A DNA stretch of 32,000 bases from positions 993,063-1,025,062 of the forward strand of contig CAZETV010000001.1 of the NCBI GenBank assembly GCA_964514965.1. Direction: 5' to 3'. Position numbers and translations under genes: made by a program. The stretch comes from Candidatus Hadarchaeota archaeon. Lineage in GTDB: Archaea; Hadarchaeota; Hadarchaeia; Hadarchaeales; Hadarchaeaceae. Positions 13,895-28,759 of this stretch are shown one piece after another; the first letter of the stretch is position 1, and each line of letters starts with the position of its first letter. Under the pieces are notes generated by a model. That model did not search any database and had not been told where the DNA came from. It saw only the letters and a list, made by a program, of their open reading frames with translations.

Positions 13895-14176
13895 ATGAAG
13901 GAATAAACCCGTGGTAATCGAGAGCTGGCGTGATTTATGAGCGTCGGTGCATCACTGCGGGAACACTGGAGCAATCCGTCGGCAATCGTGCCAAAAATTG
14001 GGTCCTCGTCCGAGCGATTGGCGGGAACACCTAGTGATGATTTCGAGACAACCCTGGTGCGGAACACGGCGGGCGGCCCCCGAGAAAATCCGCCATCGAG
14101 GGTTAGCGGGTGAAGGACGTCTAAAAGACAGCCCATGAAGCCCGCTGTTAGTTGTGTCGGAGACATTGGGGGCCAA
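13895..14176. ncRNA. Candidate structured RNA of unknown class (strand unresolved)
   Basis: This is an ORF-poor, GC-rich island of about 280 nt between pheT and the pilus ATPase gene. Many helices can be drawn: CAUCACU 13950-56 with AGUGAUG 14033-39; AACCCU 14050-55 with AGGGUU 14098-14103; AGCGGG 14104-09 with CCCGCU 14145-50; and GGCCCCC 14076-82 with GGGGGCC 14168-74, which would form a pseudoknot. The motif GCGG(G)AACAC occurs three times. T-tracts flank the region on both strands. The size suggests SRP RNA, but I could not find the helix-8 signature. Confidence 0.35.
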
Positions 14177-14282
14177 TTTCGTTTTTCTGTTCATATTTGT
14201 AAGGCGAAAAAGAATATTCGCAAAATCCGAAGATAAGCTTAAATTTACTGAAATTCGGTTAACTTTGGGGGTGAGCGGGTAA

Positions 14283-15980
14283 GTGGCAAGGAAAAGAAAG
14301 ACAACACGCGCTGATAAAAACACGGGGCCTCGGACGAAAACTCCAAGTGGAGAATTTGAGGTTTTGGCTGGCGAGGGTGAGGGACTCTTATCTGAAATTC
14401 TAACAGGCGCACCGCCAAATGAAAGCAAATCAACCGCAAAGCCTGCAGGGGGACTTGCTTCATCCGCAAAAGTTGTTATAGAACAGGTATCCAAAGTTGG
14501 GAAAGTGGTTGATAGCTACGGTAAGACTGAAATAGTTTCTGTCGAGGGCCAGGCTCTGCCGATTTACAAGTCGAAATTGCCCGACCTGACGAAACAGGAA
14601 TTAAAGCTACTCGAGATTGCAAAAGAGAAGGCGATAGAGGAAGTCAGTGTCAATCTGGAAAAGATTTCTGACCCGGCAGAACGTCGGAACACCCTCATGC
14701 GCGAGGTCCTAAAAATACTCGAACGCGAGAGCAAGGGGACGTACATCTCGTCTGGAAGATTAACTCACTTAGGCGAAGCCGCCGTGCGGGACATGATCGG
14801 TTATGGGCAGCTTGATTCTATAATCGCTGATGACCAACTTGAAGACATTTTGGTGACGGCGGTGGGCAAGCCCGTTTACGTCTATCATCGAAAGTACGGA
14901 ATGTGCGCTACGAACGTTGTTTTTGAGAGCGATGAAGCGATTAAATATCTCATAGAAAAAATGGCGCGCGTCGTGGGCAGACGGATAGACCAGCAGACGC
15001 CCTTGCTTGACGCACGATTACCCGATGGAAGCAGGGTGAACGCGACTATACCGCCGATTTCTCTTGATGGATCAACGATCTCAATAAGAAAGTTCCGCAA
15101 GGACCCGCTCACGGTGGTCGACATCCTAAACTTGGGCACCCTCTCAACAGATGCCGCGGCGTTCCTCTGGCTGGTCGTGGATGGTTTTGGCATCAAGCCC
15201 GCAAACATCCTATTCGCGGGGGGGACGGGCTGCGGAAAGACGACCATGCTCAACGCCGCCATAACTTTCGTCCCAGAGCGGGAGCGCATCATCTCGATTG
15301 AGGACACCGCCGAGCTTCAACTTTCTCATAAACACTGGATTAGACTTGAGACGCGCCCACCAAACGTCGAAGGACGCGGAGAGGTTACGATGAATGATTT
15401 GGTTAAAAATGCACTACGAATGAGGCCGGACCGGATGATCGTGGGGGAGGTTCGAGGTCCAGAAGCACAGACGATGTTCACCGCGATGAATACCGGCCAT
15501 GATGGTTGCTGTGGCACGCTGCACTCAAACAGTGCGGTTGAGACAATTTCGCGCCTGACTGAGCCTCCGATGGCTGTGGCCCCCATAATGATTCCAGCTC
15601 TCGATATCATCGTGATGCAACAACGCATCTACCACCGCCAGAAGGGACAGATTCGAAGGGTCACCGAGGTCTCCGAGGTTACTGGTCTAGAGAGTGGAAA
15701 ACCTCAGCTCAGCCGCATCTTCAAGTGGGACCCCCGCACGGATGTGGTCGAGCCGACCAGCGTACCAAGCAAGATTAAGCGCACGATAGCAGAGTTTAGC
15801 GGGATGAGCGGGAACGATATCGAGATCGAACTTGGGAAGCGTGCGGCAGTACTGGAATGGATGAAACATCAAGGTATACGAAATATTTTCGAGGTGAGTA
15901 ATATTATCCAAGAGTACTACCAAAACCCGGAGGAAATATTAAATCGCGTAAGGAACGAGAAGAACACTAAGCGTCATTAG
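14283..15980 (+). CDS. Type II/IV secretion system ATPase (FlaI/PilB/TadA-CpaF family) of the type IV filament locus
   Basis: Walker A FAGGTGCGKTTMLNA, Asp box/Walker B PDRMIVGEVRGPEA, and His box GHDGCCGTLHSNS. The N-terminal 70 aa look disordered and basic. The start codon is GTG. Confidence 0.9.
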   Translation: MARKRKTTRADKNTGPRTKTPSGEFEVLAGEGEGLLSEILTGAPPNESKSTAKPAGGLASSAKVVIEQVSKVGKVVDSYGKTEIVSVEGQALPIYKSKLPDLTKQELKLLEIAKEKAIEEVSVNLEKISDPAERRNTLMREVLKILERESKGTYISSGRLTHLGEAAVRDMIGYGQLDSIIADDQLEDILVTAVGKPVYVYHRKYGMCATNVVFESDEAIKYLIEKMARVVGRRIDQQTPLLDARLPDGSRVNATIPPISLDGSTISIRKFRKDPLTVVDILNLGTLSTDAAAFLWLVVDGFGIKPANILFAGGTGCGKTTMLNAAITFVPERERIISIEDTAELQLSHKHWIRLETRPPNVEGRGEVTMNDLVKNALRMRPDRMIVGEVRGPEAQTMFTAMNTGHDGCCGTLHSNSAVETISRLTEPPMAVAPIMIPALDIIVMQQRIYHRQKGQIRRVTEVSEVTGLESGKPQLSRIFKWDPRTDVVEPTSVPSKIKRTIAEFSGMSGNDIEIELGKRAAVLEWMKHQGIRNIFEVSNIIQEYYQNPEEILNRVRNEKNTKRH

Positions 15981-15987
15981 TGATTCC

Positions 15988-17097
15988 ATGCCGAAAAAAA
16001 AAGCTAAAAAGCCGAGTTCGTTGAAGAGATTTTTTTCTGCAGTTGGCGGCGGTGTGATAAAAACAGGCACTACAGCACAGCGCGTGGGTCAGGCAGTCAA
16101 TATTACAAAGAGGCCTGAAGCTCCAGAAAAGGCTGATGGGGAAGTTGCCCGAAGGCTGCGTGAACTGAAACGGCTCGAAAGTTTGCGTGAGGAAGAAATT
16201 GCCGCAGAGCGTAAGCTGAGAGAAGATAAAAAGTGGGAGGTACGCGCGGAGCTGAAGAGGTCGTTATCCGAGCGCCTCTCTGAGATTTTTTATTCCCCGC
16301 TCAAGCGCCCGGCTCAGCGAATGGCTACGTTTTTTAAGGGGTTAGATGATGACCTCTACAAGGCTAACATCAGAGTTGCCCCCACGCATTATGTGGCACT
16401 AATGATCGGGATGAGCCTCATCATGAGTGTCTTTGCATTAGTTCTTATGCTCCTGTTTTTACCCGTCCTCTTTGCAGTGGTTGGTGGAGTGTTCGCTTTC
16501 GTGCTAGTACTGGTTTTTAGTAGAACCCAGCCAAAGCGTAAGGCTAAGGCGCGAGTAGTCGGGATAAATCGCGTAATCCCGTACGCTATGCGGCACATGG
16601 CAACGCAGCTTTCATCTGGAATAGGCCTCCCAGAAACTATTACTTCGGTCAGCAAGGCTGATTATGGCGCTCTCTCGGAGGAGTTTGACAGAGTCATACG
16701 TGACATGCATACAGGGATGAGCACGGAAGAAGCACTAACGAGTATGACCCAGCGGGTGGACTCCGAGCCACTCCGTCGAGCAGTCCGCCAAGTTCAGCGC
16801 ACTTTACGGACGGGTGGCGACTTGGCTGGCATCCTCCACACTTTGGCCGACGAAACAGCTTTCGAGATGCGCATGAAATTACGAGACTATACTCAATCAC
16901 TCAACATGCTCACGATGGTCTACATGTTTGCCTCCGCGGTCATCCCAGCCATGCTTATGGTCATGATAGCGGTGGGTAGTCGAATGGGCGGAATGATGTT
17001 TACTTCAGCGAGTGCGGCAGTCCTCTTTTTGATTCTCATCCCATTCATGTTATTATACTTCGTCATGATGATCAAACGCTTCGAGCCGAGGTTATGA
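15988..17097 (+). CDS. Type IV filament platform protein, single T2SSF domain (TadB/EpdJ-like)
   Basis: A cytoplasmic charged N-terminus is followed by one T2SSF-like helical domain (RHMATQLSSGIGLPETI...RAVRQVQRTLRTGGDLAGIL) bracketed by TM segments. The stop overlaps the next start (ATGA). Confidence 0.8.
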   Translation: MPKKKAKKPSSLKRFFSAVGGGVIKTGTTAQRVGQAVNITKRPEAPEKADGEVARRLRELKRLESLREEEIAAERKLREDKKWEVRAELKRSLSERLSEIFYSPLKRPAQRMATFFKGLDDDLYKANIRVAPTHYVALMIGMSLIMSVFALVLMLLFLPVLFAVVGGVFAFVLVLVFSRTQPKRKAKARVVGINRVIPYAMRHMATQLSSGIGLPETITSVSKADYGALSEEFDRVIRDMHTGMSTEEALTSMTQRVDSEPLRRAVRQVQRTLRTGGDLAGILHTLADETAFEMRMKLRDYTQSLNMLTMVYMFASAVIPAMLMVMIAVGSRMGGMMFTSASAAVLFLILIPFMLLYFVMMIKRFEPRL

Positions 17098-18035
17098 CGA
17101 TGAGTGTGCTTAAAAAAATGGCGGCGTTTGCGAAGCGCGTGTTTCCAGAGAAATTCCTGCAGAGCCTCAACCGCAGGTTGGAGTCAACGAAAATCGCACT
17201 CGCTGCTGAGGAATACGTGGGAGTGGCCCTCCTAGCGACGATACTCGTGGGTGTGACAGCGGGTTTCATGGGCATTCTCCTGAATTTCCCACTCCCAGCG
17301 CCTCTGCTCGCAATCATTGTAGCCGTTGCCACCTTTCCAGCGCTGACGATTGGGGTGCCCTATTATCTGGCCCAACGTAGGGCTGCTGAGCTGGAAAGTG
17401 TGTTACCAGATGCCCTCCGCCAGATGGCGAGCACTCTGCGGGCTGGTGTGGGGATAGACGCCGCGATGGATGATATAGTAAAATCAAAGTACGGCACGCT
17501 TTCAGATGAATTCGATCGGGTGGTGACGGAGATTCGTAGGGGGAGAACCCTCGACAACGCTCTCTTGGCTCTAGCGCGGAGGTCGAATTCGCCCCTCTAT
17601 GAGCGGGCCTTTCACCTGATTGTTGAAGGTATCGAACGCGGCGGAGCTCTCGCCAACGTGCTCGACGCAGTTTCCACTGACATCAAGGAGACGCATGCGA
17701 TCCAGCGTGAGAGGAGGGCAGCCACAATGCAGCAAGTATTATTCCTGCTCGCCGTGGCTCTCTTTGCAGTTCCATTCATAGTTGGCCTCACGGTTGCGGT
17801 GACCGGAATTCAGGTAGGCAGAGGGCCAGTGACAGGTTCAGGCCTGCCAGCGGAGATGAGCACGATCGCCATGATGTACATAGTGATACAAGCGCTCATC
17901 TGTTCGCTCGCGGTCGGAGTGATTCGTTACGGCAAGATGTTAAAAGGCCTAACTTTCGCCGTGCCGTTTGTGATGGTCTCGGCAGTCGTCTTCTATGTTG
18001 CCCAGAATATAATCGGGGGCATTGCGTCAGTTTAG
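17094..18035 (+). CDS. Type IV filament platform protein, single T2SSF domain (TadC/EpdK-like)
   Basis: LPDALRQMASTLRAGVGIDAAM...VVTEIRRGRTLDNAL plus flanking TM segments. It is a paralog of the preceding ORF and is translationally coupled to it. Confidence 0.8.
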   Translation: MTMSVLKKMAAFAKRVFPEKFLQSLNRRLESTKIALAAEEYVGVALLATILVGVTAGFMGILLNFPLPAPLLAIIVAVATFPALTIGVPYYLAQRRAAELESVLPDALRQMASTLRAGVGIDAAMDDIVKSKYGTLSDEFDRVVTEIRRGRTLDNALLALARRSNSPLYERAFHLIVEGIERGGALANVLDAVSTDIKETHAIQRERRAATMQQVLFLLAVALFAVPFIVGLTVAVTGIQVGRGPVTGSGLPAEMSTIAMMYIVIQALICSLAVGVIRYGKMLKGLTFAVPFVMVSAVVFYVAQNIIGGIASV

Positions 18036-18595
18036 CGTTCCATGCCAAGTTCTTGTAAATCGTTATATATCGTATCACGCGAAACTCCGAATCTCTTGGC
18101 CACTTGCACAAGGTTTATCGCTTTTGCGTCGTTGCCGAGCAATCGCAGTAGCACCGTTAAACGTTCTCGACGTTCCCACAAACTGAGCTTACTAATTTTT
18201 CTGGGGACATCCTCATTCACAGCAACGATGAGCGTGGCATAGGTACGCTTTGTTAGAGGGGGAGTAATGAATTTCAGGTAAAACCCGATGATCTCCCCGC
18301 GTAGTTTCGACAAGCGTGCATTTATTTTATCTTGGGCGCGTTGAAGGGCAACCGCCTCACTACCGCCGACTTCGTTCACCCAGAGGATGCATTTTGGTCT
18401 GACATCACTTTCGTCTATCACCAAAGCTATGCGCGCAATTCCGCCAGTCAAACCTGAGCTGACGTTCACATCCATCCGAGTTATACATCCTTGCATTTTT
18501 GCAAGCTTCTCGTTAATTTCATTTGCAGTTCGTTTGAGCGCCTTTCGCACATTTGTAGCTCGCCGCACGCAGCTCAGAACTTGCAAGTTTATCAA
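18032..18595 (-). CDS. HTH DNA-binding protein with an uncharacterised N-terminal domain (candidate pilus regulator)
   Basis: The C-terminal HTH is INLVQVAKRFGVSRDTIYNDLQELG. It diverges from the pilin genes and converges on the tadC-like gene with a 4-nt overlap. The start is uncertain: TTG 18595 or an internal ATG giving MQGCITRMD. Confidence 0.6.
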   Translation of the reverse strand: MINLQVLSCVRRATNVRKALKRTANEINEKLAKMQGCITRMDVNVSSGLTGGIARIALVIDESDVRPKCILWVNEVGGSEAVALQRAQDKINARLSKLRGEIIGFYLKFITPPLTKRTYATLIVAVNEDVPRKISKLSLWERRERLTVLLRLLGNDAKAINLVQVAKRFGVSRDTIYNDLQELGMER

Positions 18596-18717
18596 AATAG
18601 GTTGTATGGTGGATGTTTTTAAGGGTTTGTCTACAAAAATGTCGACTTTTTCTCAGAAATGTGGAGGTATCTTTATAACCCCAAATTTAAGAAAATTCCT
18701 GTAAAGAGGTGAAAAAA

Positions 18718-19089
18718 ATGAGATTGTCTAAAAAGGGTCAAGGCGCTACAGAGTACCTATTGATGTTGGCTGCAGTATTAGTAATAGTAGCCATAGCGGT
18801 GTACTACGTGACAAGCACTGGTGGTTATCCAGCAGTTGCTGCAACAGCAGTAAAGTCTGGTGACAACACGATTAGAATTGACGTTACAACTGGAACAATC
18901 CCGGCTGGAGACTGGCAATATATAGTGAGCACGACTCCAGGAAGCAATAACTGGCAGGACAAAGGCGTAGAACTGAAAGCACCATACGTTAGCTTGGAGA
19001 ATTGCTCCCCAAACACCTACTACGTGAGCCTGAAGCACACGCCGAGCGGTCACATCTACTTCTCGGACCAAACGATAACGATATCTTAA
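18718..19089 (+). CDS. Archaeal type IV pilin (class III signal peptide), paralog 1
   Basis: MRLSKKG|QGATEYLLMLAAVLVIVAIAVYYV shows the class III signal peptide pattern, with Glu at +5 and a hydrophobic helix. A GAGGTG Shine-Dalgarno sequence lies 6 nt before ATG 18718; the track start is GTG 18709. A TATA-like CTTTATAAC lies upstream. Confidence 0.8.
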   Translation: MRLSKKGQGATEYLLMLAAVLVIVAIAVYYVTSTGGYPAVAATAVKSGDNTIRIDVTTGTIPAGDWQYIVSTTPGSNNWQDKGVELKAPYVSLENCSPNTYYVSLKHTPSGHIYFSDQTITIS

Positions 19090-19138
19090 GCGCATTGGCC
19101 TGTTTGAAAGAAACGCCCACAGTTGGGTAGGGGATAGG

Positions 19139-19513
19139 ATGAGTGGGAGTAGAAAAGAGTGCGGACAAAGCGCGACCGAGTATATGTTAATCCTAGCGGC
19201 GGTGCTTGTCGCAGTTGCGGTGGCGGTCTACTACGTGGCAAAGGGCCCGTCTTTCCCACTATTGTCTGCTACCGTCACGAATGTGGACAACGAAATCAGG
19301 GTCAGCATAGACACGGGATCCATACCGGCAGGCGATTGGCAGTATTCCGTGAGCGCGATTTATGGAACATACGACTGGAAAAGTGAGGACGTAGAACTGA
19401 AAGCTCCGTACTTTAGCCTTGGGACTTACGACCCAGACATCTACTACGTGAGCCTTAAGCACCAACCAAGTGGCCACATCTACTTCTCGGACCAAACGAT
19501 AACGATAACGTAG
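19139..19513 (+). CDS. Archaeal type IV pilin (class III signal peptide), paralog 2
   Basis: MSGSRKECG|QSATEYMLILAAVLVAVAVAVYYV. It is about 60 percent identical to the previous pilin and shares IPAGDWQY, VELKAPY and YYVSLKH.PSGHIYFSDQTITI. Confidence 0.8.
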   Translation: MSGSRKECGQSATEYMLILAAVLVAVAVAVYYVAKGPSFPLLSATVTNVDNEIRVSIDTGSIPAGDWQYSVSAIYGTYDWKSEDVELKAPYFSLGTYDPDIYYVSLKHQPSGHIYFSDQTITIT

Positions 19514-19566
19514 ATTTTTATCCTATCCTCCCCTATTCTTTTTTGTTGGGGCTCATGGTCACGAGG

Positions 19567-19752
19567 ATGAGTGAGCGCTCTCAAGGAGCAACCGAGTACT
19601 TGCTGATGCTAGGTGTCGTGCTGGTACTCGTGGCGGGTATAGTTGCGTCTATTTTCCTAGCCTCTCAGACCTTGGGTTCAAACGTTAGTGGCCAAATCAA
19701 TGACGTTATAGATAACTTGATAATTCCAAGTCTCGTTGGAACAATTTTCTGA
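19567..19752 (+). CDS. Very short pilin (class III signal peptide; mature length about 55 aa)
   Basis: MSERS|QGATEYLLMLGVVLVLVAGIVASIFL is followed by only about 30 more residues. The track ORF starts at TTG 19543; ATGs at 19555 and 19567 are in frame. Confidence 0.7.
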   Translation: MSERSQGATEYLLMLGVVLVLVAGIVASIFLASQTLGSNVSGQINDVIDNLIIPSLVGTIF

Positions 19753-19789
19753 AAACTTAATAGCCAAGTGAATCGGTCAATCATATGAT

Positions 19790-20563
19790 TTACTCGGACT
19801 TACCCAAAATCGCTCTAACCTTTGCTCCCCGGAGCCCCAGCGTCGGCCGCTCCACGCTGATTTTTACCGAGTCCCCTTTCTTGATTTTGGCGAAGCTCTC
19901 CACAGCGTACAGGCCCGACTTCACGTTGCTGCAGATGTCGTAGCTTATTCTGACCACCGCCCGTTTGCCCCGAATCTCTTCAACCGTGCCGTAGGTGAAG
20001 TTTCGCCCGTACTTGAGCCTGAACGCCACAAACGCCACTAAAACGAACCCCATTGCCATCAGAGGAGGAATAAGCGCAAGGTAGAGCGCCTCGATTGAGA
20101 ACTCGACAGGGAAGTATCGGAATGCCAGCACAAAGACCCAAGCGATGGTCACACACATTATCACGAAGCTCCGGTAGGCGGAATAGTCTCGTTTGAACGC
20201 GTGCTTGAGTTGAGTTGCCGTCAAGTAGAGTAGATAAGCGCTCAGCGCGAGAAGCAAGAAAGTGAAGATAAAAATTTCTGCGGGGAACAACGCGATGTAG
20301 ATTACTGCAGCCCCGAAGAGTGAGAGGATCGCCAGCTGCGCTTTGAGCATCACGTACTCGGGCCATCCCGTGTGGCGCCGCTCAAAGAAGCTCTGAAACA
20401 TTTTTGGGATTTCGGGCTTTCGTATCTGCGGGGCCCTTTTCTTTACATTTGGAGCCCTGCGTTTCAGCCTGCTGGGGAGCTTTCCGACTTCTAGAACCGC
20501 GTCACCGACTCTGCGGAAGAAACCGGTTGTTCTGGAACTTTTGTGCGGCATTTTATTCACCAA
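19790..20563 (-). CDS. Polytopic membrane protein (about 4 TM) with a basic N-terminus and a beta-rich C-terminal domain; last gene of the pilin-like operon
   Basis: Four hydrophobic segments are followed by GTVEEIRGKRAVVRISYDICSNVKSGLYAVESFAKIKKGDSVKISVE. It starts 4 nt after the stop of the upstream pilin-like gene. I do not recognise the family with confidence. Confidence 0.6.
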   Translation of the reverse strand: MVNKMPHKSSRTTGFFRRVGDAVLEVGKLPSRLKRRAPNVKKRAPQIRKPEIPKMFQSFFERRHTGWPEYVMLKAQLAILSLFGAAVIYIALFPAEIFIFTFLLLALSAYLLYLTATQLKHAFKRDYSAYRSFVIMCVTIAWVFVLAFRYFPVEFSIEALYLALIPPLMAMGFVLVAFVAFRLKYGRNFTYGTVEEIRGKRAVVRISYDICSNVKSGLYAVESFAKIKKGDSVKISVERPTLGLRGAKVRAILGKSE

Positions 20564-20567
20564 ATAT

Positions 20568-21263
20568 CTACCCTAAATCCACCGTCGATGAGTACTGCAG
20601 GGCGCCTCTCGGATCTCTAACGTTAATAAACACTTTAAGTTGTGTCACGCCTTTTACCTCGGTGTTCTCCCCAACATGAGTATTCTCAGGAGCACCGACT
20701 CTATCCCAAAGTAGTTGGTCTGAATAATAAACATCCGGGTAATAGATGCCGTCGTACTCCTCGATAGTTATTCGGAGATTTTCACCGATTTTTTCGACAA
20801 ACAAGACGGGTTCATCATAATCTGGTTCTCCGATGCCCCAAGAAGCTTCATTTGACTCCTCGAAGTAGTAGAACCAGTTCTCTCCGGGAGCATTCTCAAC
20901 AATATTACAGTATTGTGTCCCAGCAAGATGATTTTCTCCTATGTTTATGACACGAATCCACAACATCCAACTGGGCTTGATATCCACGAGCAACCCTGTG
21001 GCAGCACGGTAGTTGTCCGCGAGCTCACTAAGCGTGATGTCGGCGTTGTCTATCAGCAGACTCTCATTCCACAAATCCTTTACCACGCGCTCGATATCAT
21101 TGCCAGTATAGAACACCTTATCAGCGGAGGCCTGTAACGTAGTGGCTTCTCCGCCCATCTCGATGATTGTAAAACAAGAGGCTACGAGCAGCATAGCCGG
21201 CAGTACGAGCAGCAGCGCTATCCCGCTCAGGACGAACCCCCGTTGGTCTTTACGCATTCTCAT
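20568..21263 (-). CDS. Pilin-like protein 7 (class III signal peptide-like N-terminus)
   Basis: MRMRKDQRG|FVLSGIALLLVLPAMLLV. The start at 21263 gives an ATGA overlap with the upstream stop; the track start is 21281. Confidence 0.65.
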   Translation of the reverse strand: MRMRKDQRGFVLSGIALLLVLPAMLLVASCFTIIEMGGEATTLQASADKVFYTGNDIERVVKDLWNESLLIDNADITLSELADNYRAATGLLVDIKPSWMLWIRVINIGENHLAGTQYCNIVENAPGENWFYYFEESNEASWGIGEPDYDEPVLFVEKIGENLRITIEEYDGIYYPDVYYSDQLLWDRVGAPENTHVGENTEVKGVTQLKVFINVRDPRGALQYSSTVDLG

Positions 21264-21742
21264 ATCCCCGTCCCCCGCCACACGTAAAGAGTAATAGGGT
21301 CAAACACGTTTTCAGGCGGAAATAGTAAAACACGAGTTGCAACGGCGATATCCTCGGCATTTATAAAATTGCTATACCATTCGGCGTGATTTCCAACGCT
21401 TGGATAAACATTATCCAGTCTAGGATTATTTTCGTCCCCAATTAGAAATCTAAACTGTATTTCATCGGGCAAGATTTTTCGTAGCTCGTTTTCGGCAAGT
21501 TCCGCGGCCCAAGAGTTTTCTCCTTCAGCGAGCAAGTTTATGATGTTGTCCAGCGTGCCAGAAAGCTGCATCGTCTCGAGCGCATCGTTGGCATAACGTT
21601 CCAAGCGCAGGTATCCGTGCTGCTCGTATATGATCCCAGGGCTGCTCACGTGAGCTACCCCTGCCATCACAATCATCACAACCAGCATCGCCAGTGTCGC
21701 GTCGAGGCTGAAGATGAACCCGCGTTGGTCCTTGGCGTTCAT
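21260..21742 (-). CDS. Pilin-like protein 6 (class III signal peptide-like N-terminus)
   Basis: MNAKDQRG|FIFSLDATLAMLVVMIVMAGV. Confidence 0.7.
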   Translation of the reverse strand: MNAKDQRGFIFSLDATLAMLVVMIVMAGVAHVSSPGIIYEQHGYLRLERYANDALETMQLSGTLDNIINLLAEGENSWAAELAENELRKILPDEIQFRFLIGDENNPRLDNVYPSVGNHAEWYSNFINAEDIAVATRVLLFPPENVFDPITLYVWRGTGI

Positions 21743-21746
21743 GTGT

Positions 21747-22790
21747 CTACCTCCACATTTTCACCTCAAGAGTCGCTGGCAACGGTTGTAAGAACATGGT
21801 GGCATCGCTCCAGTCTGAGCAGGATGGAAGTGTGACAATGCAAACTTTAACAACCCAATCTGGTCCAGAAGTGAATTTGAACCCCAAAAAGTTAGTACCT
21901 ACAAATAGATTATCTTCAGCTTCAATTTGGCTGTCGTTTTCTATGCCGCCATGTTGAAAGTGACCTTTAGGCGGGTCTTCCGGACCTGGAGAAACTCTTT
22001 GTGGCATATCTGAGTATACAAAGTTATAATCGGAAGATCCATCTGGGTTCTCACCGACATCACCATCTCTAGCGTTGTCGTTTACCCATATCTGAAGATT
22101 GGGCTTGGCGCCAGTTCCTTCTTTCAACCCAACGACGACGATGTAAAAGTCGAATGCATCGAGTTCTCCCGGATAAATCTCAAATACCAGTTCATTTTCC
22201 GTTGCTCCTCCTCCCGCTTTAAATATTGGCCCTGAATCTGCCCGAATCGCCGACCCGTACCTGACTGAAATCAAACGTCTAACGACTGCAACATCAAGGG
22301 AATTTTCCGCCCCGGAGTTTTCCCCCACTTGCTCAGCGCTCCACCTCGGAAAAGCATACCACATTTCATCATTATTTTCATCAAGTATCCTAACTTCAAA
22401 CTTCTCTGATCCCCCAAAGAGTTTTTTTATTGTTTCCACAGCTCCAGCGTTTATCGGGGCATCCCAGTTGTCTTTGTTGATCAAGCGCCTGAACTGTCCA
22501 AATTTCTTAATATCAATGGTATTCGGAATCGGCTCCCCTGCGTTCTCCTCTGCAAATCCCAAAATGCTTAGCGTGATAGAATTTTCCCACCAGTTATATG
22601 ACGCGCCAGCAGTCTTCAAAAGAACGTCTGCAGCATCATTTGCCGTGCGCTCGAGCGAGTACCGGAGCGAGTATTCCTCGGCCTGCTTGCGCGCCTGCTC
22701 AAGCGCCAGCCCGGAGTAGCTCACCACTAGCACAGTCAGGGCCAGCGCGAAAAACATGTCGAGAGTGAAAATTTGTCCTCGCTCTTTCAT
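21747..22790 (-). CDS. Large pilin-like protein 5 (347 aa; class III signal peptide-like N-terminus)
   Basis: MKERG|QIFTLDMFFALALTVLVVSY is followed by about 320 aa of beta-rich, acidic sequence. This is the largest member of the set and a candidate tip or adhesin subunit. Its start overlaps the upstream stop by 4 nt. Confidence 0.7.
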   Translation of the reverse strand: MKERGQIFTLDMFFALALTVLVVSYSGLALEQARKQAEEYSLRYSLERTANDAADVLLKTAGASYNWWENSITLSILGFAEENAGEPIPNTIDIKKFGQFRRLINKDNWDAPINAGAVETIKKLFGGSEKFEVRILDENNDEMWYAFPRWSAEQVGENSGAENSLDVAVVRRLISVRYGSAIRADSGPIFKAGGGATENELVFEIYPGELDAFDFYIVVVGLKEGTGAKPNLQIWVNDNARDGDVGENPDGSSDYNFVYSDMPQRVSPGPEDPPKGHFQHGGIENDSQIEAEDNLFVGTNFLGFKFTSGPDWVVKVCIVTLPSCSDWSDATMFLQPLPATLEVKMWR

Positions 22791-23188
22791 TTGATCACCC
22801 TCATTACCTCCACCGCCACATCATAGGTGTAGTGGCTGGTCTTGACAGGTTCTGCAGTTTCTGGGAGAAAACCGACGATAGCATTGTAAATGTGTTTGAG
22901 TGCTCCCTGCCTGAGGTTGTCCGAGATGGTCTGGTTATCCGGTGGTGGCCCGCCCCTCACATTGACATGAATCATTATGGTGCCCGCGTTGAAATCTAGT
23001 TGTTCAATACCAATTGTGCACCCATACTCGATGTCCAAGGCAGCAATCGCATTTTCCGCTCCAACACGGGCTGCCGACATCGCAACTGCCATCTCGTTGC
23101 TTCCGGTACCCGAATATAGCAGCGATGCGACCGCCACGAGGATCGCCCCGACGAGAATTAACATCTCCGCGCTGGATTGGCCCCTCAT
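22787..23188 (-). CDS. Pilin-like protein 4 (class III signal peptide)
   Basis: MRG|QSSAEMLILVGAILVAVASLLY with Glu at +5. The start at 23188 gives an ATGA overlap with the upstream stop; the track start is 23221. Confidence 0.7.
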   Translation of the reverse strand: MRGQSSAEMLILVGAILVAVASLLYSGTGSNEMAVAMSAARVGAENAIAALDIEYGCTIGIEQLDFNAGTIMIHVNVRGGPPPDNQTISDNLRQGALKHIYNAIVGFLPETAEPVKTSHYTYDVAVEVMRVIK

Positions 23189-23610
23189 GTTTTCGTGACC
23201 TCCAATTTGCTGTCCACCCAATGCACCAGGATTGTATTTTCCAGATTGTCATGCCCCAGCACGAAATTCTCAACGTTTTTACAGACGACCACCACGCCCA
23301 CAGTCCCCCAAGCCGAATTTTCCACTAAGATTTGCCGCTGGGTGTTGTCGAAACTAATTTGGTAAAAGTAGCTTCCAATTTTCGACGGCAGGTCCACGCG
23401 GAGCTCGAAGTTCGGCCCATCCGCATACACGGTGTTTATTGCCGCAGCGAGCTTTTCACCGATGGTTCTAGCTTCCAACCTAGCGCTCATCAGCCCGGCA
23501 GCTTCATTTCGTCCCTCGTAAATGTTTAAAAATGATGCTGAAATTATCAGGAGGAGAGTAACCGCGAACATCGCGTCAATCGAGAAAAATCCTCGCTCGC
23601 GAAGCTCCAT
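23185..23610 (-). CDS. Pilin-like protein 3 (class III signal peptide-like N-terminus)
   Basis: MELRERG|FFSIDAMFAVTLLLIISASF. Confidence 0.7.
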   Translation of the reverse strand: MELRERGFFSIDAMFAVTLLLIISASFLNIYEGRNEAAGLMSARLEARTIGEKLAAAINTVYADGPNFELRVDLPSKIGSYFYQISFDNTQRQILVENSAWGTVGVVVVCKNVENFVLGHDNLENTILVHWVDSKLEVTKT

Positions 23611-23612
23611 CG

Positions 23613-24062
23613 TCAGCCCCCCACCGGCTTGATGTTTATTGTGATTTTGTAGTTGTCTGGAGTAAGACTATTGTTGTCACTCGACCACTCTACAATTGCC
23701 GTGTAGGTTCCGGCCGAGAGGTTTTGTAGGGAACCGTTAAACCCGTACTTTAGATTACTTTGGACATTTTGCGTTCCGTTTGATGTCTTTAGACTAATCG
23801 TGAGTTTATTCTCTGTGAGCTGCAAGTCCCAGTTGCTGTCCATTGGAAAACTTACGCTTTTTACTGCCCCTTTTTCATTGCTGTACACGGAGTTTATCGC
23901 ACCCGAGATGGCATCGGCGGCGAATCTAGCTTGGGAAAGATGCAAAGTGTCTCTTCCAGCCTCCTGTGTAGGGGTTATCATTTGCCCGAACGTGACCGTG
24001 GCGAATATTACCAACACAGCCGAAAAAATGAGCAAGTATTCGACGGCTGCTTGCCCTCGCAT
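23613..24062 (-). CDS. Pilin-like protein 2 (class III signal peptide)
   Basis: MRG|QAAVEYLLIFSAVLVIFATVTF with Glu at +5. Confidence 0.75.
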   Translation of the reverse strand: MRGQAAVEYLLIFSAVLVIFATVTFGQMITPTQEAGRDTLHLSQARFAADAISGAINSVYSNEKGAVKSVSFPMDSNWDLQLTENKLTISLKTSNGTQNVQSNLKYGFNGSLQNLSAGTYTAIVEWSSDNNSLTPDNYKITINIKPVGG

Positions 24063-24593
24063 CTAAGTCACCTCGATATCGGAAATTACAATGTACCTCA
24101 GACCATCCTTGTACTCGTACGTGAAAGTTGTTATATGGAGACCAGAGTCATCCTTGAAGTTTTCATCCCCAACCACCACACGGTTTTCGTTATTCTCGCT
24201 CGGCAGAATGGTATCTAGCAGTATGATGGCCTCACGTTTGTTGTCCCACTCGCCGTTTCCGTCTAGATCAAGCCAGATTTGGACATCCATTCGGTTGTCG
24301 GGGGCTACATCGTTATCGGTGGTTTCTATCCCATCGACGTTCACATTCGCGTATATTTTTACTACCCCTTCCGGCAGCCGATACTCAACCGTCTGTTTTG
24401 AACCAACGCCTGCGGCATAAACAGTGTTGAGGGCATTTGTTATCTCGCCCGCAGCCTCGCGTGCATCCGCAAGTTTCGAGACTTTCTCAGCTTCGACGCG
24501 CGCCTGATTGTACATCGGCATTGTGGTCGCAGCGAGGATTATAAGCAATCCCGAAATCACGACGATAAACTCGATGCTGAGTTGGCCCCTCAC
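24063..24593 (-). CDS. Pilin-like protein 1 (class III signal peptide) with a DxDxDG-type loop
   Basis: (V/M)RG|QLSIEFIVVISGLLIILAATT. The GTG at 24593 gives the MRGQ pattern seen in the paralogs; the track start is 24602. It contains LDLDGNGEWD. Confidence 0.75.
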   Translation of the reverse strand: MRGQLSIEFIVVISGLLIILAATTMPMYNQARVEAEKVSKLADAREAAGEITNALNTVYAAGVGSKQTVEYRLPEGVVKIYANVNVDGIETTDNDVAPDNRMDVQIWLDLDGNGEWDNKREAIILLDTILPSENNENRVVVGDENFKDDSGLHITTFTYEYKDGLRYIVISDIEVT

Positions 24594-24737
24594 TTTGACC
24601 ACGTTGAAAATTTTGCCGCGCCAGTATTAACTTTTCTCTTGACGTTATTCAAAAAGCAACCAAATCAGCTAGTTTTGCTAGTTTGACCTGAAAAAACAGC
24701 AGATTTTAAGTTACTTAAACAATGGATATCTGGTGCC

Positions 24738-25469
24738 ATGGCGCGGATTATAATATTATCATCCGGTAAAGGCGGAACTGGGAAGACCACGGTGACCGCA
24801 AACTTAGGTATTGCGCTCGCAAAACGCGGTAAAAAGGTCATCGCCTTGGACGCCGATGTGACCATGGCGAACTTGGGGCTGATGCTCAGTCTTGAAGGGA
24901 AGAAAATAACATTGCATGAGGTGCTCTCGGGTAAGAAAAATGCTAAACAAGCGGTTTACAATGGTCCCGCTGGCCTGAAAGTCGTGCCATGTGGGATGTC
25001 ACTGGAAGGGGTTCAAAAAGTCAAACTCGGTAGGTTAAAAAAGGTGGTGCTGGAACTCGCCGATAATGTAGATTTCTTGCTCGTCGATAGTTCATCTGGG
25101 ATGGGGCATGATTCGATAACCGCGCTGGCCGTTGCTCAAGAGGCCATCCTCGTGGTAACCCCAAATTTTGCCTCTATTCTAGAAGCCATGAAGATAAAAC
25201 GTGTTGTTGAACGTCTTCACACAAAAGCACCTGGGATAATAATTAACCGTGCAAGTAGGGAACGAACAGATCTTTCTCAAAGGGAAATAGAGTCCATTTT
25301 GGAGTTGCCCGTGATCGGGGTTATTCCTGAAGATATCGAAGTCAAGCGTGCAGTAGCTCTCGGTGAAGCTGTGGTTTTACGTTCGCCGAAAGCACCGGCC
25401 GCAAAAGCGTTTAAAAAATTGGTCGAAACACTTCTCAAATCAAAGGGCAAAAATGACACAAGTAGCTAA
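24738..25469 (+). CDS. MinD/ParA-family P-loop ATPase (canonical motifs)
   Basis: MARIIILSSGKGGTGKTTVTANLG is a deviant Walker A with both lysines. LDADVTMANLG is the Walker A' with both Asp residues, and LLVDSSSG is the Walker B. It diverges from the pilin-like operon. Confidence 0.85.
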   Translation: MARIIILSSGKGGTGKTTVTANLGIALAKRGKKVIALDADVTMANLGLMLSLEGKKITLHEVLSGKKNAKQAVYNGPAGLKVVPCGMSLEGVQKVKLGRLKKVVLELADNVDFLLVDSSSGMGHDSITALAVAQEAILVVTPNFASILEAMKIKRVVERLHTKAPGIIINRASRERTDLSQREIESILELPVIGVIPEDIEVKRAVALGEAVVLRSPKAPAAKAFKKLVETLLKSKGKNDTSS

Positions 25470-25570
25470 CCAAAGCATAAAACAAGTTATCAATCTTCGG
25501 GTTCCTAAAAAAAGTATTTTTTATTAAAACTACCCGATAAACTTTAAATTTAGGCTGACGACGATAAGTT

Positions 25571-25954
25571 ATGCCAAAGAAGGACGAACAGGGTAAAAAA
25601 GCCACGGTCATAAAGCGCGATTTGGAGATAACAGAGCGAGAACTCCGTCAAGTCACAGATTTTCAATGGATCTATGCAAAACGAATGTTGAGATTTGGCT
25701 TTGCATCATGGATTTTAGGATTGGTTTTGTTTTTCTTTATCTTGGTCATTCGTGGGTTAGAATTTTTGGGCCGATTATCCTTGGCGTATCCTTTGTTGAT
25801 AATTGCTATTGTGGTTCCAATTTTTATAACAGCCTTCTCCGTGCGCAAATTTAACGCAAAACTCAAGCGTTTGGAACGCGTCCGAAAGCTGCTGCTGACA
25901 GATTATGAACGAGCAATTCTAAAGCGTGCTGATACCCTTATTAAGAAAAAGTGA
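25571..25954 (+). CDS. Small 2-TM membrane protein with charged N- and C-terminal helices, hypothetical
   Basis: Two hydrophobic helices (FASWILGLVLFFFILVI and AYPLLIIAIVVPIFITAF) are flanked by Lys/Glu/Arg-rich segments. A TATA-like ACTTTAAATTT lies upstream. Its stop abuts the stop of the convergent MinD-like gene. Confidence 0.55.
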   Translation: MPKKDEQGKKATVIKRDLEITERELRQVTDFQWIYAKRMLRFGFASWILGLVLFFFILVIRGLEFLGRLSLAYPLLIIAIVVPIFITAFSVRKFNAKLKRLERVRKLLLTDYERAILKRADTLIKKK

Positions 25955-26680
25955 TCATGAAGTTGATTTTTTAGTTCTCATTTCCACGAGTTTTCTGGCC
26001 AACGCCTTGATAGCCTTTGAAGCAAGTGAGTTTGGGGTTGCATCGACCGCGATTTTTCCTGAGTTGAAAGCTTTTTTGATGTTTATATCTTCGGGCACCT
26101 CCGCTAGCACTGGCAGGTTGAGTAGATGCCCAATTTCCGAGCTCGTGAGTTCAAATTCCTCTCGAAGTACACGGTTGACGACGACACCAATGGACTTTAA
26201 ACCCAAAAAATCCGCAATCAAGCGGGTCTTCATCATGTCTGAAGCTGCCGCAATTTCGGGAAGAGTGATCAATAACACTTCCTGTCCCGCGCGGAGCGCT
26301 GCAATAGTTTCGCGCCGTAACCCGCTGGGCGCATCGATGAGCAGAAAATCTGCATTTATCGATAATTCTTTCAATATCCCCGGTAAACGGTTGGGCAATG
26401 CTTTTTTTACTTGATTGAGCGTGACTCCCGCGGGTATTATTTTTAGACCAGAGGGCCCCTGATAGATGACATCATTCAATGGAATCTCGCCGGCGAGCAC
26501 ATCATTCAAGGTGTAAGGTACCTTCTCAAGCTTGAACATCGTACCGAGATTTGGGGTCGTCAAACTTGCATCCAAAACTATGGCCTTTTTACCCATTTTG
26601 GCGATCGCGAGGCCAAGATTCGCAGTTAGAGTACTACGCCCTACGCCCCCCTTGCCGGATCCAAGCACGATTCGGCGCAC
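25955..26680 (-). CDS. MinD/ParA-family ATPase paralog with degenerate catalytic motifs
   Basis: From GTG 26680 the protein reads (M)RRIVLGSGKGGVGRSTLTANLG. Walker A has Arg where the P-loop Lys is expected. LDASLTTPNLG has Ser where the second Walker A' Asp is expected. Walker B is LLIDAPSG. The 61-aa N-terminal extension in the track ORF (to 26863) is AT-rich and has no MinD counterpart, so it is probably not coding. Confidence 0.75.
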   Translation of the reverse strand: MRRIVLGSGKGGVGRSTLTANLGLAIAKMGKKAIVLDASLTTPNLGTMFKLEKVPYTLNDVLAGEIPLNDVIYQGPSGLKIIPAGVTLNQVKKALPNRLPGILKELSINADFLLIDAPSGLRRETIAALRAGQEVLLITLPEIAAASDMMKTRLIADFLGLKSIGVVVNRVLREEFELTSSEIGHLLNLPVLAEVPEDINIKKAFNSGKIAVDATPNSLASKAIKALARKLVEMRTKKSTS

Positions 26681-26844: not shown

Positions 26845-28131
26845 TTGAATAAGTATTTCTCACCTCCTACTTTTGCAACACGGGGGCGACTTTTTCAACA
26901 ACATTAATCCCCAGCTCAAAGGATTCCTGAATCAGAACGCAGACGTTATGGCACAACAATTTTAACAATACCTCGTTTAGCTGGGCGGTCTTCGTCTTGC
27001 TTCTCACCGAGTCGCCGAACTTTGCCTTAACCATGTGGAAAACCGTTTCAACATTCGACCGCTTGTGGTAGTGGGTTAAAAATTCCTCACGGTTGAATTG
27101 GAAGTAATGGAACATTTTGGCCCATATCATCGAACCCCTCGCTTTTCCCGTTGTGCCTTGCTTGAACGGGATAAACGCCTCGCCTCCGAGTTTCCCGACC
27201 ACCTCAAGGTTATCCCTCGCTAAGTAACCCATGTCGGCTGAAACCTCCTTTATCTGGAAGTTCTGCGCCGTGTCTTCTATCAATCCCTTGAACTGTGGCG
27301 AATCCGCACCCGTTGATTCGGTGAGCTTGACCGCCGTGACGATATTCGTTTTTGTTCCACAGGCGATATGCGCCTTTATCCACATTCGAGAATCGATGAC
27401 CTTACCATATTTGAAACTGAACCATCGGTCAAATCTCGAAGTGCTGAAACCTGAGCTATCAACCGCAAAATCACTTTCGACCGAAGCAAGGGGTATGCTA
27501 CTTTGCTTAATCAAATTCATCAGGATCGGCGTTAGTTCCTCTTTCTCCATGTATCTTGCTACCGTGCTGTAATGCACAACCCCGTCTATGTATTTCTTCT
27601 CGTTTGCGGTTTTCATGAGGTTGGCGAACCTCCGCAGGGAAAAGGTCGAATAGACTTTCAAGGCACTCACGAAAACCATGTCCGACATCGGCACGGTTGG
27701 CCTGCCGAAGACGTAGGGTTTGTTCTGTATGCCGCCGCAAAGGTCTGAAAGATAGCGCATGAAAAACTCTCCCTCATGAGTTTGCGCCTTGTCGTATGCC
27801 GACCAATCCTGCGCATAAGTAACCTTGACCGCTTTCGTCACGGTCTTGTTACCTTCCGAATCAGTAACAATCTTGCAGTAATATTCAACGGCCCAGATGT
27901 GCTTGCATTTTGTATGTCGGGTTTGGCAGTCTGGGCAGTCACAAACGCTTTCTAATCCTCCTGTTTCTACGTGATAAACCCCGTGTCCCGTCTGGCTTGG
28001 GACAACCCACTTCATACCTTCCCTAATTATTCTTGAGGACTTGGCAATTGCCAAACCTCGTTGTTGTCGTTCGTCCATCTTTACCACCTATACGTATAAT
28101 ACGTATGGTATTAAGTATTTATACTTATCCA
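26845..28131 (-). mobile_element. Probable IS element carrying the SWIM-DDE transposase; ends not resolved
   Basis: There is one transposase ORF. An imperfect inverted match is GAATAAGTAT (26849 region) against the reverse complement of ATACTTATCC (28121-28130). I found no target-site duplication, so the boundaries are tentative. Confidence 0.35.
26867..28078 (-). CDS. DDE transposase (IS4/IS5-superfamily YREK signature) with an N-terminal SWIM-type zinc finger
   Basis: CDCPDCQTRHTKCKHIWAV is SWIM-like (CxCx..CxH). The DDE candidates are FAVDSSGFS, VSADMGYLARDN and YHKRSNVETVFHMVK, the last giving Y-2-R-3-E-6-K. ATG 28078 has an upstream GGTGG; the track start is GTG 28087. Confidence 0.8.
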   Translation of the reverse strand: MDERQQRGLAIAKSSRIIREGMKWVVPSQTGHGVYHVETGGLESVCDCPDCQTRHTKCKHIWAVEYYCKIVTDSEGNKTVTKAVKVTYAQDWSAYDKAQTHEGEFFMRYLSDLCGGIQNKPYVFGRPTVPMSDMVFVSALKVYSTFSLRRFANLMKTANEKKYIDGVVHYSTVARYMEKEELTPILMNLIKQSSIPLASVESDFAVDSSGFSTSRFDRWFSFKYGKVIDSRMWIKAHIACGTKTNIVTAVKLTESTGADSPQFKGLIEDTAQNFQIKEVSADMGYLARDNLEVVGKLGGEAFIPFKQGTTGKARGSMIWAKMFHYFQFNREEFLTHYHKRSNVETVFHMVKAKFGDSVRSKTKTAQLNEVLLKLLCHNVCVLIQESFELGINVVEKVAPVLQK

Positions 28132-28146: not shown

Positions 28147-28314
28147 ATGTCAAGAACACAAAAACAAGAAAATAAAGCGATACCTAAGACAATTACGATT
28201 TTCCCCGAACATCAAAAATTCATAGACGACACTTCTTTGAACCTTTCTAAATTTGTTCAAAAAAAGATTGACGAAGAAATTGAAACAAGGAGGTCGGCAA
28301 ATGCCAAAAAATAA
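28147..28314 (+). CDS. Small ribbon-helix-helix-like protein (55 aa), candidate controller of the R-M module
   Basis: MSRTQKQENKAIPKTITIFPEHQKFIDDTSLNLSKFVQKKIDEEIETRR fits a beta-strand/helix/helix (CopG/Arc-like) pattern. Its 3' end overlaps the nuclease gene start by 14 nt. The fold is assigned by eye only. Confidence 0.45.
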   Translation: MSRTQKQENKAIPKTITIFPEHQKFIDDTSLNLSKFVQKKIDEEIETRRSANAKK

Positions 28315-28759
28315 ATTCTGCAAACTGGAGAATCTCAGAAATGAAAGCGATGTCGAGCAGTTTTTGGTTTACCCTATGCTCAACGATTTAGGTTATACTG
28401 CGGACTATATTGAAACTAAGGCATCGATAAAACAAGTCAATATTGGAAAAGAAAAAAGGAAACGTGCCTACCGGCCCGACTATGTCTGTTATTCGGACAA
28501 AAAACACCAACACCCCGTTCTAATAGTCGATGCAAAGAATCCCGACGAAGACCCTGAAGACGGAGTAATCGATGCTCAACTTTATGCTTCGGTGATTCGC
28601 AGATCACTGAGTAGACCGAAGCCAGACCAGTTTTGTATAGGAACCAACGGAAGAAAAACGATTATCAAACACTACGACTCAAGCACAACTGAATACACAC
28701 TTGATTTCGCTGAATTAGGTGAGGGAATTCCAGATACGAAGCTTTCAAAAATGACATGA
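28301..28759 (+). CDS. Stand-alone HsdR-N-terminal-like PD-(D/E)xK nuclease domain protein
   Basis: A GGAGG Shine-Dalgarno sequence lies 7 nt before ATG 28301. NESDVEQFLVYPMLNDLGYTADYIE...YRPDYVCY...PVLIVDAKNPDED matches the pattern of the type I restriction enzyme R-protein N-terminal domain (D...D-x-K core). There is no helicase or motor domain. The stop overlaps the next start (ATGA). Confidence 0.65.
   Translation: MPKNKFCKLENLRNESDVEQFLVYPMLNDLGYTADYIETKASIKQVNIGKEKRKRAYRPDYVCYSDKKHQHPVLIVDAKNPDEDPEDGVIDAQLYASVIRRSLSRPKPDQFCIGTNGRKTIIKHYDSSTTEYTLDFAELGEGIPDTKLSKMT

Follow-up and report, generated by a model that had tools for sequence, protein, structure and literature searches.

The window analyzed here is a 32,000-nucleotide (nt) stretch of the genome of a Candidatus Hadarchaeota archaeon, and one contiguous region of it, positions 14283–26680, carries the genes of a type IV pilus. 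An initial annotation, made from the sequence alone, had read this region as an archaeal locus for a Tad/Epd-like type IV filament whose platform is split in two genes, and both the domains found in its proteins and the alignments of the two platform halves bear this out. The open reading frame (ORF) listing and the profile scans agree that all of the components it named lie where it placed them. The region contains a T2SSE ATPase, a T2SSF platform, and class III subunits, the set by which the type IV filament superfamily is recognized. We read it as a supercluster of genes that build an archaeal type IV pilus of the Epd-like kind (clade 1 of Makarova 2016, also System 1) in Hadarchaeota, with a probability of about 85%. 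The Epd-like lineage is the archaeal relative of bacterial Tad pili, from which Tad derives, and the locus is a new, complete, and well-preserved example of an already described pilus machine, not a new machine.

The order of the genes is conserved: ATPase, platform 1, platform 2, a helix-turn-helix (HTH) protein, one or two pilins, a short pilin, an A24 peptidase in some loci, a DUF2101 membrane protein, and seven pilin-like genes. This synteny was seen in more than 20 Hadarchaeota genomes, down to ~43% identity of the DUF2101 protein, and all of the Hadarchaeota loci that we examined keep their ATPase, platform, and pilin modules in one co-linear order. The nearest named relatives of the ATPase are proteins from Hadesarchaea/Hadarchaeota metagenome-assembled genomes.

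The ATPase and the split platform

The first gene of the cluster (14283–15980, + strand) encodes an assembly ATPase of the FlaI/TadA/CpaF family, 565 amino acids (aa) long, which matches Pfam T2SSE (PF00437) at E = 5e-54. Among NCBIfam models, FlaI gives the best score at 316 bits and TadA reaches 281 bits, while the bindosome ATPase model BasE reaches 182 bits. Such scores could point to an archaellum, or to a secretion or bindosome-type filament machine, in place of an adhesive pilus. However, the FlaI and BasE scores are far under the curated cut-offs of 550 and 1000 bits, respectively, and the platform here is made up of two proteins, in contrast to FlaJ. Among the scanned locus proteins, neither Pfam nor NCBIfam gave a match to an archaellin, FlaH/KaiC, FlaF/G, FlaC/D/E, or a substrate-binding protein. 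Furthermore, the pilin set is homologous to that of Methanobacterium loci, described below, and Methanobacterium species are not known to be motile. We rejected both the archaellum and the bindosome on the absence of their accessory genes among the scanned locus proteins, and we give a machine of either kind next to no chance.

A comparison with solved structures gave A. fulgidus GspE (PDB 2OAP) as the best match, with 289 bits over nearly the full length, then CpaF with 275 bits and FlaI with 197 bits. CpaF scores about as high as A. fulgidus GspE, and both are clearly above FlaI. Taken as measures of sequence similarity, these scores rule out an archaellum and cannot part clade 1 from clade 2. 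Homologues of the ATPase in Hydrothermarchaeales are 800–980 aa long, ~50% identical over the core, with large extra regions.

Two adjacent platform genes follow on the + strand. Platform protein 1 (15988–17097, 369 aa) has a lone T2SSF (PF00482) stretch at residues 201–326 and is of the N-terminal-half type, TadC-like in the Denise scheme. Platform protein 2 (17094–18035, 313 aa) has its lone stretch at residues 107–230 and is of the C-terminal-half type, TadB-like. The T2SSF E-values of the two are 3.5e-20 and 3.8e-22. The genes overlap by ATGA (GTTATGACGA), as is visible in the sequence and had been annotated, and each has one T2SSF domain, not the two that the initial annotation had set against its own reading. 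Platform 1 aligns to positions 8–244 of the 555 positions of FlaJ and to positions 33–251 of UpsF, platform 2 aligns to positions 253–551 of FlaJ and 266–481 of UpsF, and the two proteins are 28% identical to each other. The two genes therefore correspond to the N- and C-halves of FlaJ/UpsF, which is the fission pattern that Denise et al. 2019 gave for Epd-like and Tad systems, where a platform fissioned into two single-T2SSF genes goes together with short pilins (PMC6668835).

These two modules are also where the locus might be a chimera, with the ATPase and platform of euryarchaeal clade 2 (the Halo pilus, PilB3/PilB4-like) joined to an Epd-type module of pilins, peptidase, and DUF2101 protein. 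The best solved match of the ATPase, A. fulgidus GspE, is one that we take to be a member of the euryarchaeal clade. Many clade 2 loci also carry two tadC genes, and ATPase/TadC modules evolve independently of pilin sets (PMC4858521); such a chimera would be one case of the exchange between modules described there. However, CpaF is nearly equal as a match, and Denise et al. 2019 placed Tad beside Epd-like systems and apart from the Halo pilus (PMC6668835). The 2026 census assigns a single platform gene to System 2 (bioRxiv 10.64898/2026.04.22.720090), and the co-linearity of the modules across all of the Hadarchaeota loci examined also speaks against a chimera, which we consider unlikely.

On the opposite strand, a locus-specific gene (18032–18595, − strand) encodes an HTH protein of 187 aa with a C-terminal HTH_11 match (E = 3e-5). 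It is convergent with platform 2 and divergent from the + strand pilin genes, it is found at the same position in 13 Hadarchaeota loci, and its product probably regulates the divergent pilin promoter.

Pilin-like proteins and their counterparts in Methanobacterium

Three pilin genes lie on the + strand. The first (18709–19089) encodes a pilin of 126 aa with a C-terminal globular domain and the motif KG↓QGATEY (the arrow marks the predicted cleavage site), and its Class_IIIsignal score of 35.8 bits is above the cut-off. The second (19139–19513, 124 aa, CG↓QSATEY, 20.3 bits) is a paralogue 62% identical to the first. The third (19543–19752, RS↓QGATEY) encodes a short pilin of 69 aa that has no globular domain, has its N-terminus in common with the first pilin, and would be ~56 aa long after the predicted cleavage. 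This short pilin is conserved in the locus, with RSQGATEY kept in 12 orthologues. Major pilins of clade 1 are ~70 aa long (PMC4858521). We infer that the 69-aa protein is the likeliest major subunit and a candidate for the Flp/EpdE type, with the two ~125-aa paralogues as alternatives.

The − strand carries an operon of eight tightly packed genes, seven pilin-like and the DUF2101 gene last, with spacings from a 37-bp overlap to a 4-bp gap. The first gene encodes a minor pilin of 179 aa (24063–24602, RG↓QLSIEF, Class_IIIsignal 23.6 bits), and the next a minor pilin of 149 aa (23613–24062, RG↓QAAVEY, 23.3 bits). Then come a pilin-like protein of 141 aa (23185–23610, RG↓FFSIDA), a minor pilin of 144 aa (22787–23221, RG↓QSSAEM, 19.7 bits), the largest protein of the set at 347 aa (21747–22790, RG↓QIFTLD), and a protein of 160 aa (21260–21742, RG↓FIFSLD). 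The last of the seven, 237 aa (20568–21281, RG↓FVLSGI), has a class III-like N-terminus and orthologues in 24 loci. Three of the − strand proteins have weak Pfam matches to DUF7266 (the 141-aa protein), DUF7288, and DUF7289, families presumably built from haloarchaeal pilin-like proteins.

A cleavage-type motif, made up of a basic residue (Cys in one case), G/S, Q/F, and an uncharged hydrophobic stretch, is present in all ten pilin-like ORFs. We ran a relaxed FlaFind-like test on 126 mechanical ORFs of at least 60 aa, which returned exactly these ten and one spurious antisense ORF. The strict FlaFind motif matched 6/10, and the Pfam Class_IIIsignal gathering score was exceeded by the first pilin only, with four more near or below the threshold. 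The class III motifs are near-invariant across ~20 orthologues per family. The count of ten class III signal-peptide proteins in the initial annotation stands on the relaxed test and on this conservation; its remark that ten is a high number does not, as such a number is ordinary for Epd-like systems. Seven of the ten precursors have Q at +1, six of these with E at +5, and this combination is the signature of EppA substrates (PMC4371748).

We then built profile hidden Markov models (HMMs) from the Hadarchaeota orthologues only and compared them with the peptidase-linked loci of 58 Methanobacterium genomes. The alignments were mostly full-length. The DUF2101 model matched all 58 loci (best E = 2e-38), and the models of the 149-aa and 179-aa proteins matched 55 loci each (best E = 3e-28 and 4e-23). 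The 141-aa model matched 52 loci (best E = 1e-15), and the 347-aa model, over its full length, matched 44 (best E = 1e-28). Matches to the 160-aa model were also found in 44 of the 58 loci (best E = 2e-20), with KGFIFT.D N-termini, and to the 144-aa model in 42 (best E = 5e-13). In Methanobacterium, the 149-aa family is the pilin located between the peptidase and DUF2101. Homologues of the 237-aa protein are weak there (E = 2e-6) and have Y/F at +1. Both N-terminal classes, RGQ... and KGF/KGY..., are also present in the Methanobacterium loci.

Methanobacteria have a single type IV pilus system, which is of clade 1, and the large (9-TM) EppA peptidase is restricted to clade 1 and its gene context (PMC4858521). 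Because six pilin-like families and DUF2101 match the Methanobacterium peptidase-linked loci, the accessory set can be assigned, by sequence homology, to the Epd type, with the clade 1 status of those loci taken from the same survey (PMC4858521). The annotation had been unable to assign this set to a named system from sequence alone and had counted an already characterized set of its kind against its own reading; the Methanobacterium version of the locus is, in substance, such a set.

The prepilin peptidase and the DUF2101 protein

Profile scans of the window ORFs found no A24 peptidase encoded anywhere in the window, which agrees with what had been annotated. The gene is probably not missing, but encoded elsewhere: inside the locus in relatives, and on another contig of a run that also holds an ATPase identical to that of the window. 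Nine related Hadarchaeota loci, half of the related set, have a Peptidase_A24 plus Arc_PepC gene between the short pilin and DUF2101, and in these genomes the cluster is bordered by a thermosome gene at one end and by the EPSP synthase, ThiI, and TBP genes at the other. One of these peptidases (locus L004) is a 380-aa long form with a ~110-residue hydrophobic insert, as in the 390-aa Methanobacterium enzymes. The ~390-aa Methanobacterium peptidase and the Hadarchaeota enzyme are 42% identical.

The pilus cluster itself occupies two different sites. It is found at the thermosome/EPSP synthase-ThiI-TBP site in L004, L011, L020, and L023, and at a site beside PheRS and a trio of MinD-related genes in the window, L002, and L086. 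In L002, the closest relative on a long contig (ATPase 87% identical), the peptidase gene stands alone between thermosome and EPSP synthase genes, with ~50 kb between it and the pilus cluster of that contig. Therefore, in the subclade of the window, the cluster moved beside PheRS and left the peptidase at the ancestral site. The segments that once flanked the peptidase are now joined, with 37 bp between the short pilin and DUF2101.

Among the matches listed, none of the 120 peptidase homologues is on the window's own 1.03-Mb contig. A copy 87% identical to that of L002 is on another contig (L085) of run SRR14802574, in a thermosome (Cpn60-side) context, and the same run also holds an ATPase 100% identical to that of the window. 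This peptidase therefore probably belongs to the organism of the window, with the linkage of the two contigs deduced from the shared run.

The last gene of the − strand operon (19790–20563) encodes a membrane protein that matches Pfam DUF2101 at E = 6e-31. We obtained an AlphaFold model with a mean predicted local distance difference test score (pLDDT) of 79, which has a disordered basic N-terminus, four transmembrane (TM) helices at residues 67–185, and a five-stranded C-terminal OB-like β-barrel (strands at 189–255). A Foldseek search with this model gave weak matches of the OB/S1/CusF type (E ~1e-2). The barrel is predicted to be cytoplasmic because the number of TM helices in the model is even and the N-terminus is basic.

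The DUF2101 family is small, with 145 representatives at 50% identity among 1.84 billion proteins. In a scan of species-representative genomes, members outside Hadarchaeota were almost only from genomes labelled Methanobacterium, Methanobacteriaceae, or Methanobacteriota, although a scan by a narrow alignment and a single peptide pattern may have missed Methanococcales and Thermococcales. Named members elsewhere are from Pyrococcus, Hydrothermarchaeales, and Diapherotrites, and no member from Methanococcales or Methanococcus was present among the named cluster members. There is wide overlap between this distribution (Hadarchaeota, Hydrothermarchaeales, Methanobacterium, Pyrococcus, and Diapherotrites) and the range published for System 1, which is Methanobacteriales, Thermococcales, and DPANN (bioRxiv 10.64898/2026.04.22.720090). 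A literature search found no paper mentioning DUF2101.

In Methanobacterium, the DUF2101 gene usually adjoins the ~390-aa A24 peptidase gene or stands one pilin gene away from it. Because DUF2101 is a constant neighbor of the system's peptidase in other phyla, it is likely to be an assembly factor. Its pairing with the peptidase is conserved in three phyla or more, and, as no paper was found on the family, it is a concrete target for genetic work. Its position (peptidase-pilin-DUF2101) mirrors the order eppA-epdA-epdF of M. maripaludis. We left the identity of DUF2101 with M. maripaludis EpdF (MMP0234) as a hypothesis, gene order being its sole support and no Methanococcus member having been found.

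The MinD pair, related filament systems, and flanking features

A divergent spacer of 135 bp separates the − strand operon from a trio of genes. The first (24738–25469, + strand) encodes the archaeal MinD ATPase 1 (MinD1, 243 aa, Walker A GKGGTGKT), the second (25571–25954, + strand) a small 2-TM protein of 127 aa with TM segments at 39–95, and the third (25955–26680, − strand) MinD ATPase 2 (MinD2, 241 aa, variant Walker A GKGGVGRS). Scored over the full length, MinD1 and MinD2 give 298 and 259 bits to the archaeal MinD model TIGR01969, above its curated cut-off of 201.75 bits, so the two MinD/ParA ATPases of the initial annotation are confirmed. The end coordinate 26680 is the GTG start of MinD2, in agreement with its 241-aa orthologues. 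The two MinD proteins are 42.5% identical. The GKGGVGRS motif, in which Arg replaces the P-loop Lys, is kept in all MinD2 orthologues, including those of L005–L007, L010, and L017, and MinD2 has a sub-threshold match to the NCBIfam KGGVGR-motif variant ATPase domain. The 2-TM protein had no family match in the profile scans; it is always located between the two MinD genes and is kept with the pair in seven related loci.

The position of the MinD genes at the edge of the locus had been annotated as notable, by parallel with TadZ/CpaE. MinD1 and MinD2 would then be dedicated localization factors of the TadZ/CpaE kind, and the locus an archaeal counterpart of the full Tad gene set. Consistent with this, the trio is next to the pilin operon in the window and in seven other Hadarchaeota loci, 8 of 17 informative ones, and these extend down to ~59% DUF2101 identity. 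The atypical Walker A of MinD2 is conserved, and TadZ, which is related to the archaeal arCOG00589 MinD/FleN proteins, is also known for an atypical Walker A (PMC6668835). FleN/MinD proteins of arCOG00589 are linked to clade 1 loci (PMC4858521), and a MinD/ParA operon is needed for pilus-dependent transformation in M. maripaludis (PMC10133366). However, against the CpaE/Ssd model MinD1 scores 56 bits and MinD2 39 bits, far under the cut-off of 154, and both have a single domain, with no N-terminal receiver-like domain. In the remaining 9 of the 17 loci, EPSP synthase, ThiI, and TBP flank the operon and no MinD genes are found there, and no MinD gene was found in the Methanobacterium loci. As the adjacency is restricted to one subclade, it arose with the relocation of the cluster and is not ancestral, and is thus probably secondary. 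By their sequences, MinD1 and MinD2 are ordinary archaeal MinD proteins and not TadZ-like, and we regard a dedicated localization role as possible yet doubtful. A functional link of the pair to the pilus is possible, to which the window locus adds little evidence.

The split platform, minor pilins, membrane proteins, peptidase, and FleN/MinD have all been published for clade 1/System 1 (PMC4858521; bioRxiv 10.64898/2026.04.22.720090), and the novelty implied by the annotation is therefore not upheld. Besides EppA and a FleN/MinD ATPase, the clade 1 description of Makarova 2016 counts five or more minor pilins and further membrane proteins (PMC4858521). The 2026 census of Sivabalasarma and Albers gives the same description for System 1 and does not mention Hadarchaeota (bioRxiv 10.64898/2026.04.22.720090). 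Like the Epd pilus of M. maripaludis, the window locus has one ATPase and two single-domain platform genes (EpdL, EpdJ, and EpdK). With Epd/System 1 it further shares a large number of class III precursors carrying Q at +1 and E at +5, a short, presumptive major pilin that has no globular domain, five or more minor pilins, additional membrane proteins, and an association with FleN/MinD. A dedicated A24 peptidase in the locus is a further likeness, seen in genomes related to that of the window, and the Methanobacterium version has the same six minor pilin families and DUF2101. In contrast to M. maripaludis, where the modules are spread over at least three loci, those of the window are in one ~12-kb supercluster, from which the peptidase of this genome is displaced, and the published censuses consulted do not list the phylum of the host, Hadarchaeota (PMC4858521; bioRxiv 10.64898/2026.04.22.720090).

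Several points weigh against an Epd-like assignment. The ATPase/platform module could belong to clade 2 of Makarova, whose loci may likewise have two tadC genes. F at +1, seen in three of the ten precursors, would not be accepted by M. maripaludis EppA. DUF2341, the adhesin domain of clade 1, is absent among the scanned locus proteins (Pfam, E ≤ 0.1); these PilY-like adhesins are frequent in clade 1 loci and not universal. Most Hadarchaeota peptidase copies are of a short form, ~250 aa, and the peptidases score 40–52 bits against the NCBIfam EppA and FlaK models, both far below the cut-offs (for EppA, 40–46 vs 450). Furthermore, in the L085 copy (5850–6615), the GTG start of its relatives reads GCG, and a TGA stands in frame shortly before it. 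The 45 upstream codons, including the first catalytic Asp, are still open and conserved, and the next canonical start would drop the first TM helix and the first catalytic Asp. Possible explanations of the GCG are initiation at a non-canonical codon, a lesion of recent date, and an assembly variant. Because the start of this gene is mutated from GTG to GCG, the capacity of this genome to process prepilins is not assured. Finally, we know of no pilus observed in any member of Hadarchaeota, and of no member in culture.

The likeness to bacterial Tad/Flp pili lies in the CpaF-like ATPase (275 bits to solved CpaF), the platform fissioned into two genes, a very short pilin with a motif of the G/S↓xxxxEY type (QGATEY), and a P-loop protein of the MinD/FleN family nearby. 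Unlike bacterial Tad, no secretin (RcpA/CpaC) or other outer-membrane component was found among the window proteins scanned against Pfam, and no scanned window protein matches the Flp or TadZ models. The window MinD proteins lack the receiver-like domain of TadZ and score as archaeal MinD, and the gene order also differs, as the ATPase precedes the platform genes in the window. With H. volcanii PilB3/PilC3 and PilB4 (clade 2, the Halo pilus) the locus shares the general layout of a euryarchaeal pilus, in which an ATPase/platform operon goes with sets of minor pilins, a dependence on MinD-family ATPases that is to be expected, and the weak DUF7266, DUF7288, and DUF7289 matches of three − strand proteins. 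The Halo pilus differs in its PilA-type pilins, which are processed by PibD at non-Q sites, in a platform that is usually a single gene (bioRxiv 10.64898/2026.04.22.720090), and in having neither DUF2101 nor a locus-linked peptidase.

A bolder reading would join these elements. Hadarchaeota would have kept an all-in-one, near-ancestral Epd/Tad layout made up of ATPase, fissioned platform, Flp-like short pilin, peptidase, minor-pilin operon, and MinD. DUF2101, with four TM helices and a basic barrel predicted to be cytoplasmic, would be an unrecognized core subunit of System 1, perhaps the positional counterpart of the essential EpdF, and perhaps a link from the machine to DNA or to a partner in the cytoplasm when cells are transformed through the pilus. 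MinD1 and MinD2, the latter with a K-to-R Walker A, would be a TadZ-like positioning module. We regard this combination as rather improbable.

For the Epd-like pilus that we favor, we propose the following mechanism. An A24 aspartyl prepilin peptidase, encoded outside the window at the ancestral site revealed by synteny, would cleave the ten precursors, whose class III signal peptides are evident in their sequences, after [K/R]-[G/S]. Going by its family, a hexameric FlaI/CpaF-type ATPase would drive the two-protein platform, which stems from a fissioned gene of the FlaJ/PilC type, and the platform would pull the processed pilins from the membrane and polymerize them, chiefly the 69-aa pilin or, alternatively, the ~125-aa paralogues. 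The seven minor pilin-like proteins of the − strand operon would probably form a priming or tip complex and are possible adhesins. The 4-TM DUF2101 protein, with its predicted cytoplasmic barrel, would likely assist assembly, the HTH protein would probably control the divergent promoter, and the MinD1/2-TM protein/MinD2 trio, a recent neighbor, may position or regulate the machine. The likely role is adhesion to surfaces or between cells, with DNA uptake possible by analogy with M. maripaludis.

The locus suggests that Hadarchaeota cells make adhesive, Tad-like filaments, and it extends the Epd-like (System 1) pilus to this uncultured subsurface phylum. The compact, one-cluster arrangement is a handy reference for annotation and should help comparisons that ask how bacterial Tad pili arose from archaeal ones. 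What is understood of type IV filament systems today is unchanged by it.

The remaining window ORFs encode a PPDK-like protein, arginase, L10e, TrkA, a GTPase, PTH2, an AIRS-domain protein (PF00586/PF02769), a subtilase, PheRS, a transposase, and a restriction-modification gene. At the window start, an ORF of at least 757 aa (2–2272, − strand) runs off the end, and its N-terminus, recognized by eye, is presumably that of pyruvate phosphate dikinase or PEP synthase. A non-coding element of ~250 nt (13930–14185, + strand) lies between the PheRS-beta and ATPase genes and is conserved far above its flanks across Hadarchaeota loci. Three GC-rich stems are present, each with GGGAACAC or GCGGAACAC after it, together with TGATGA motifs. 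Rfam at the gathering threshold gave nothing for this element and its folding z-score of −0.6 is not significant; a weak Rfam H/ACA (HgcG/Pab40) match was seen at 18 bits (E = 0.005), and the element may be a multi-hairpin H/ACA guide RNA. On the other side of the cluster, a DDE transposase with a SWIM zinc finger (26867–28087, − strand) abuts MinD2. Beyond it, a stretch of low GC content (28253–30957, + strand; 0.39–0.41 vs ~0.50 elsewhere) encodes an HSDR_N protein and a 733-aa fused N6-methylase/specificity protein, and was probably acquired as a restriction-modification island. The genes for PheRS alpha and PheRS beta meet without a gap in the window (12218/12219), and in L002 an ORF resembling a LAGLIDADG homing endonuclease (6618–7796) lies between the two.

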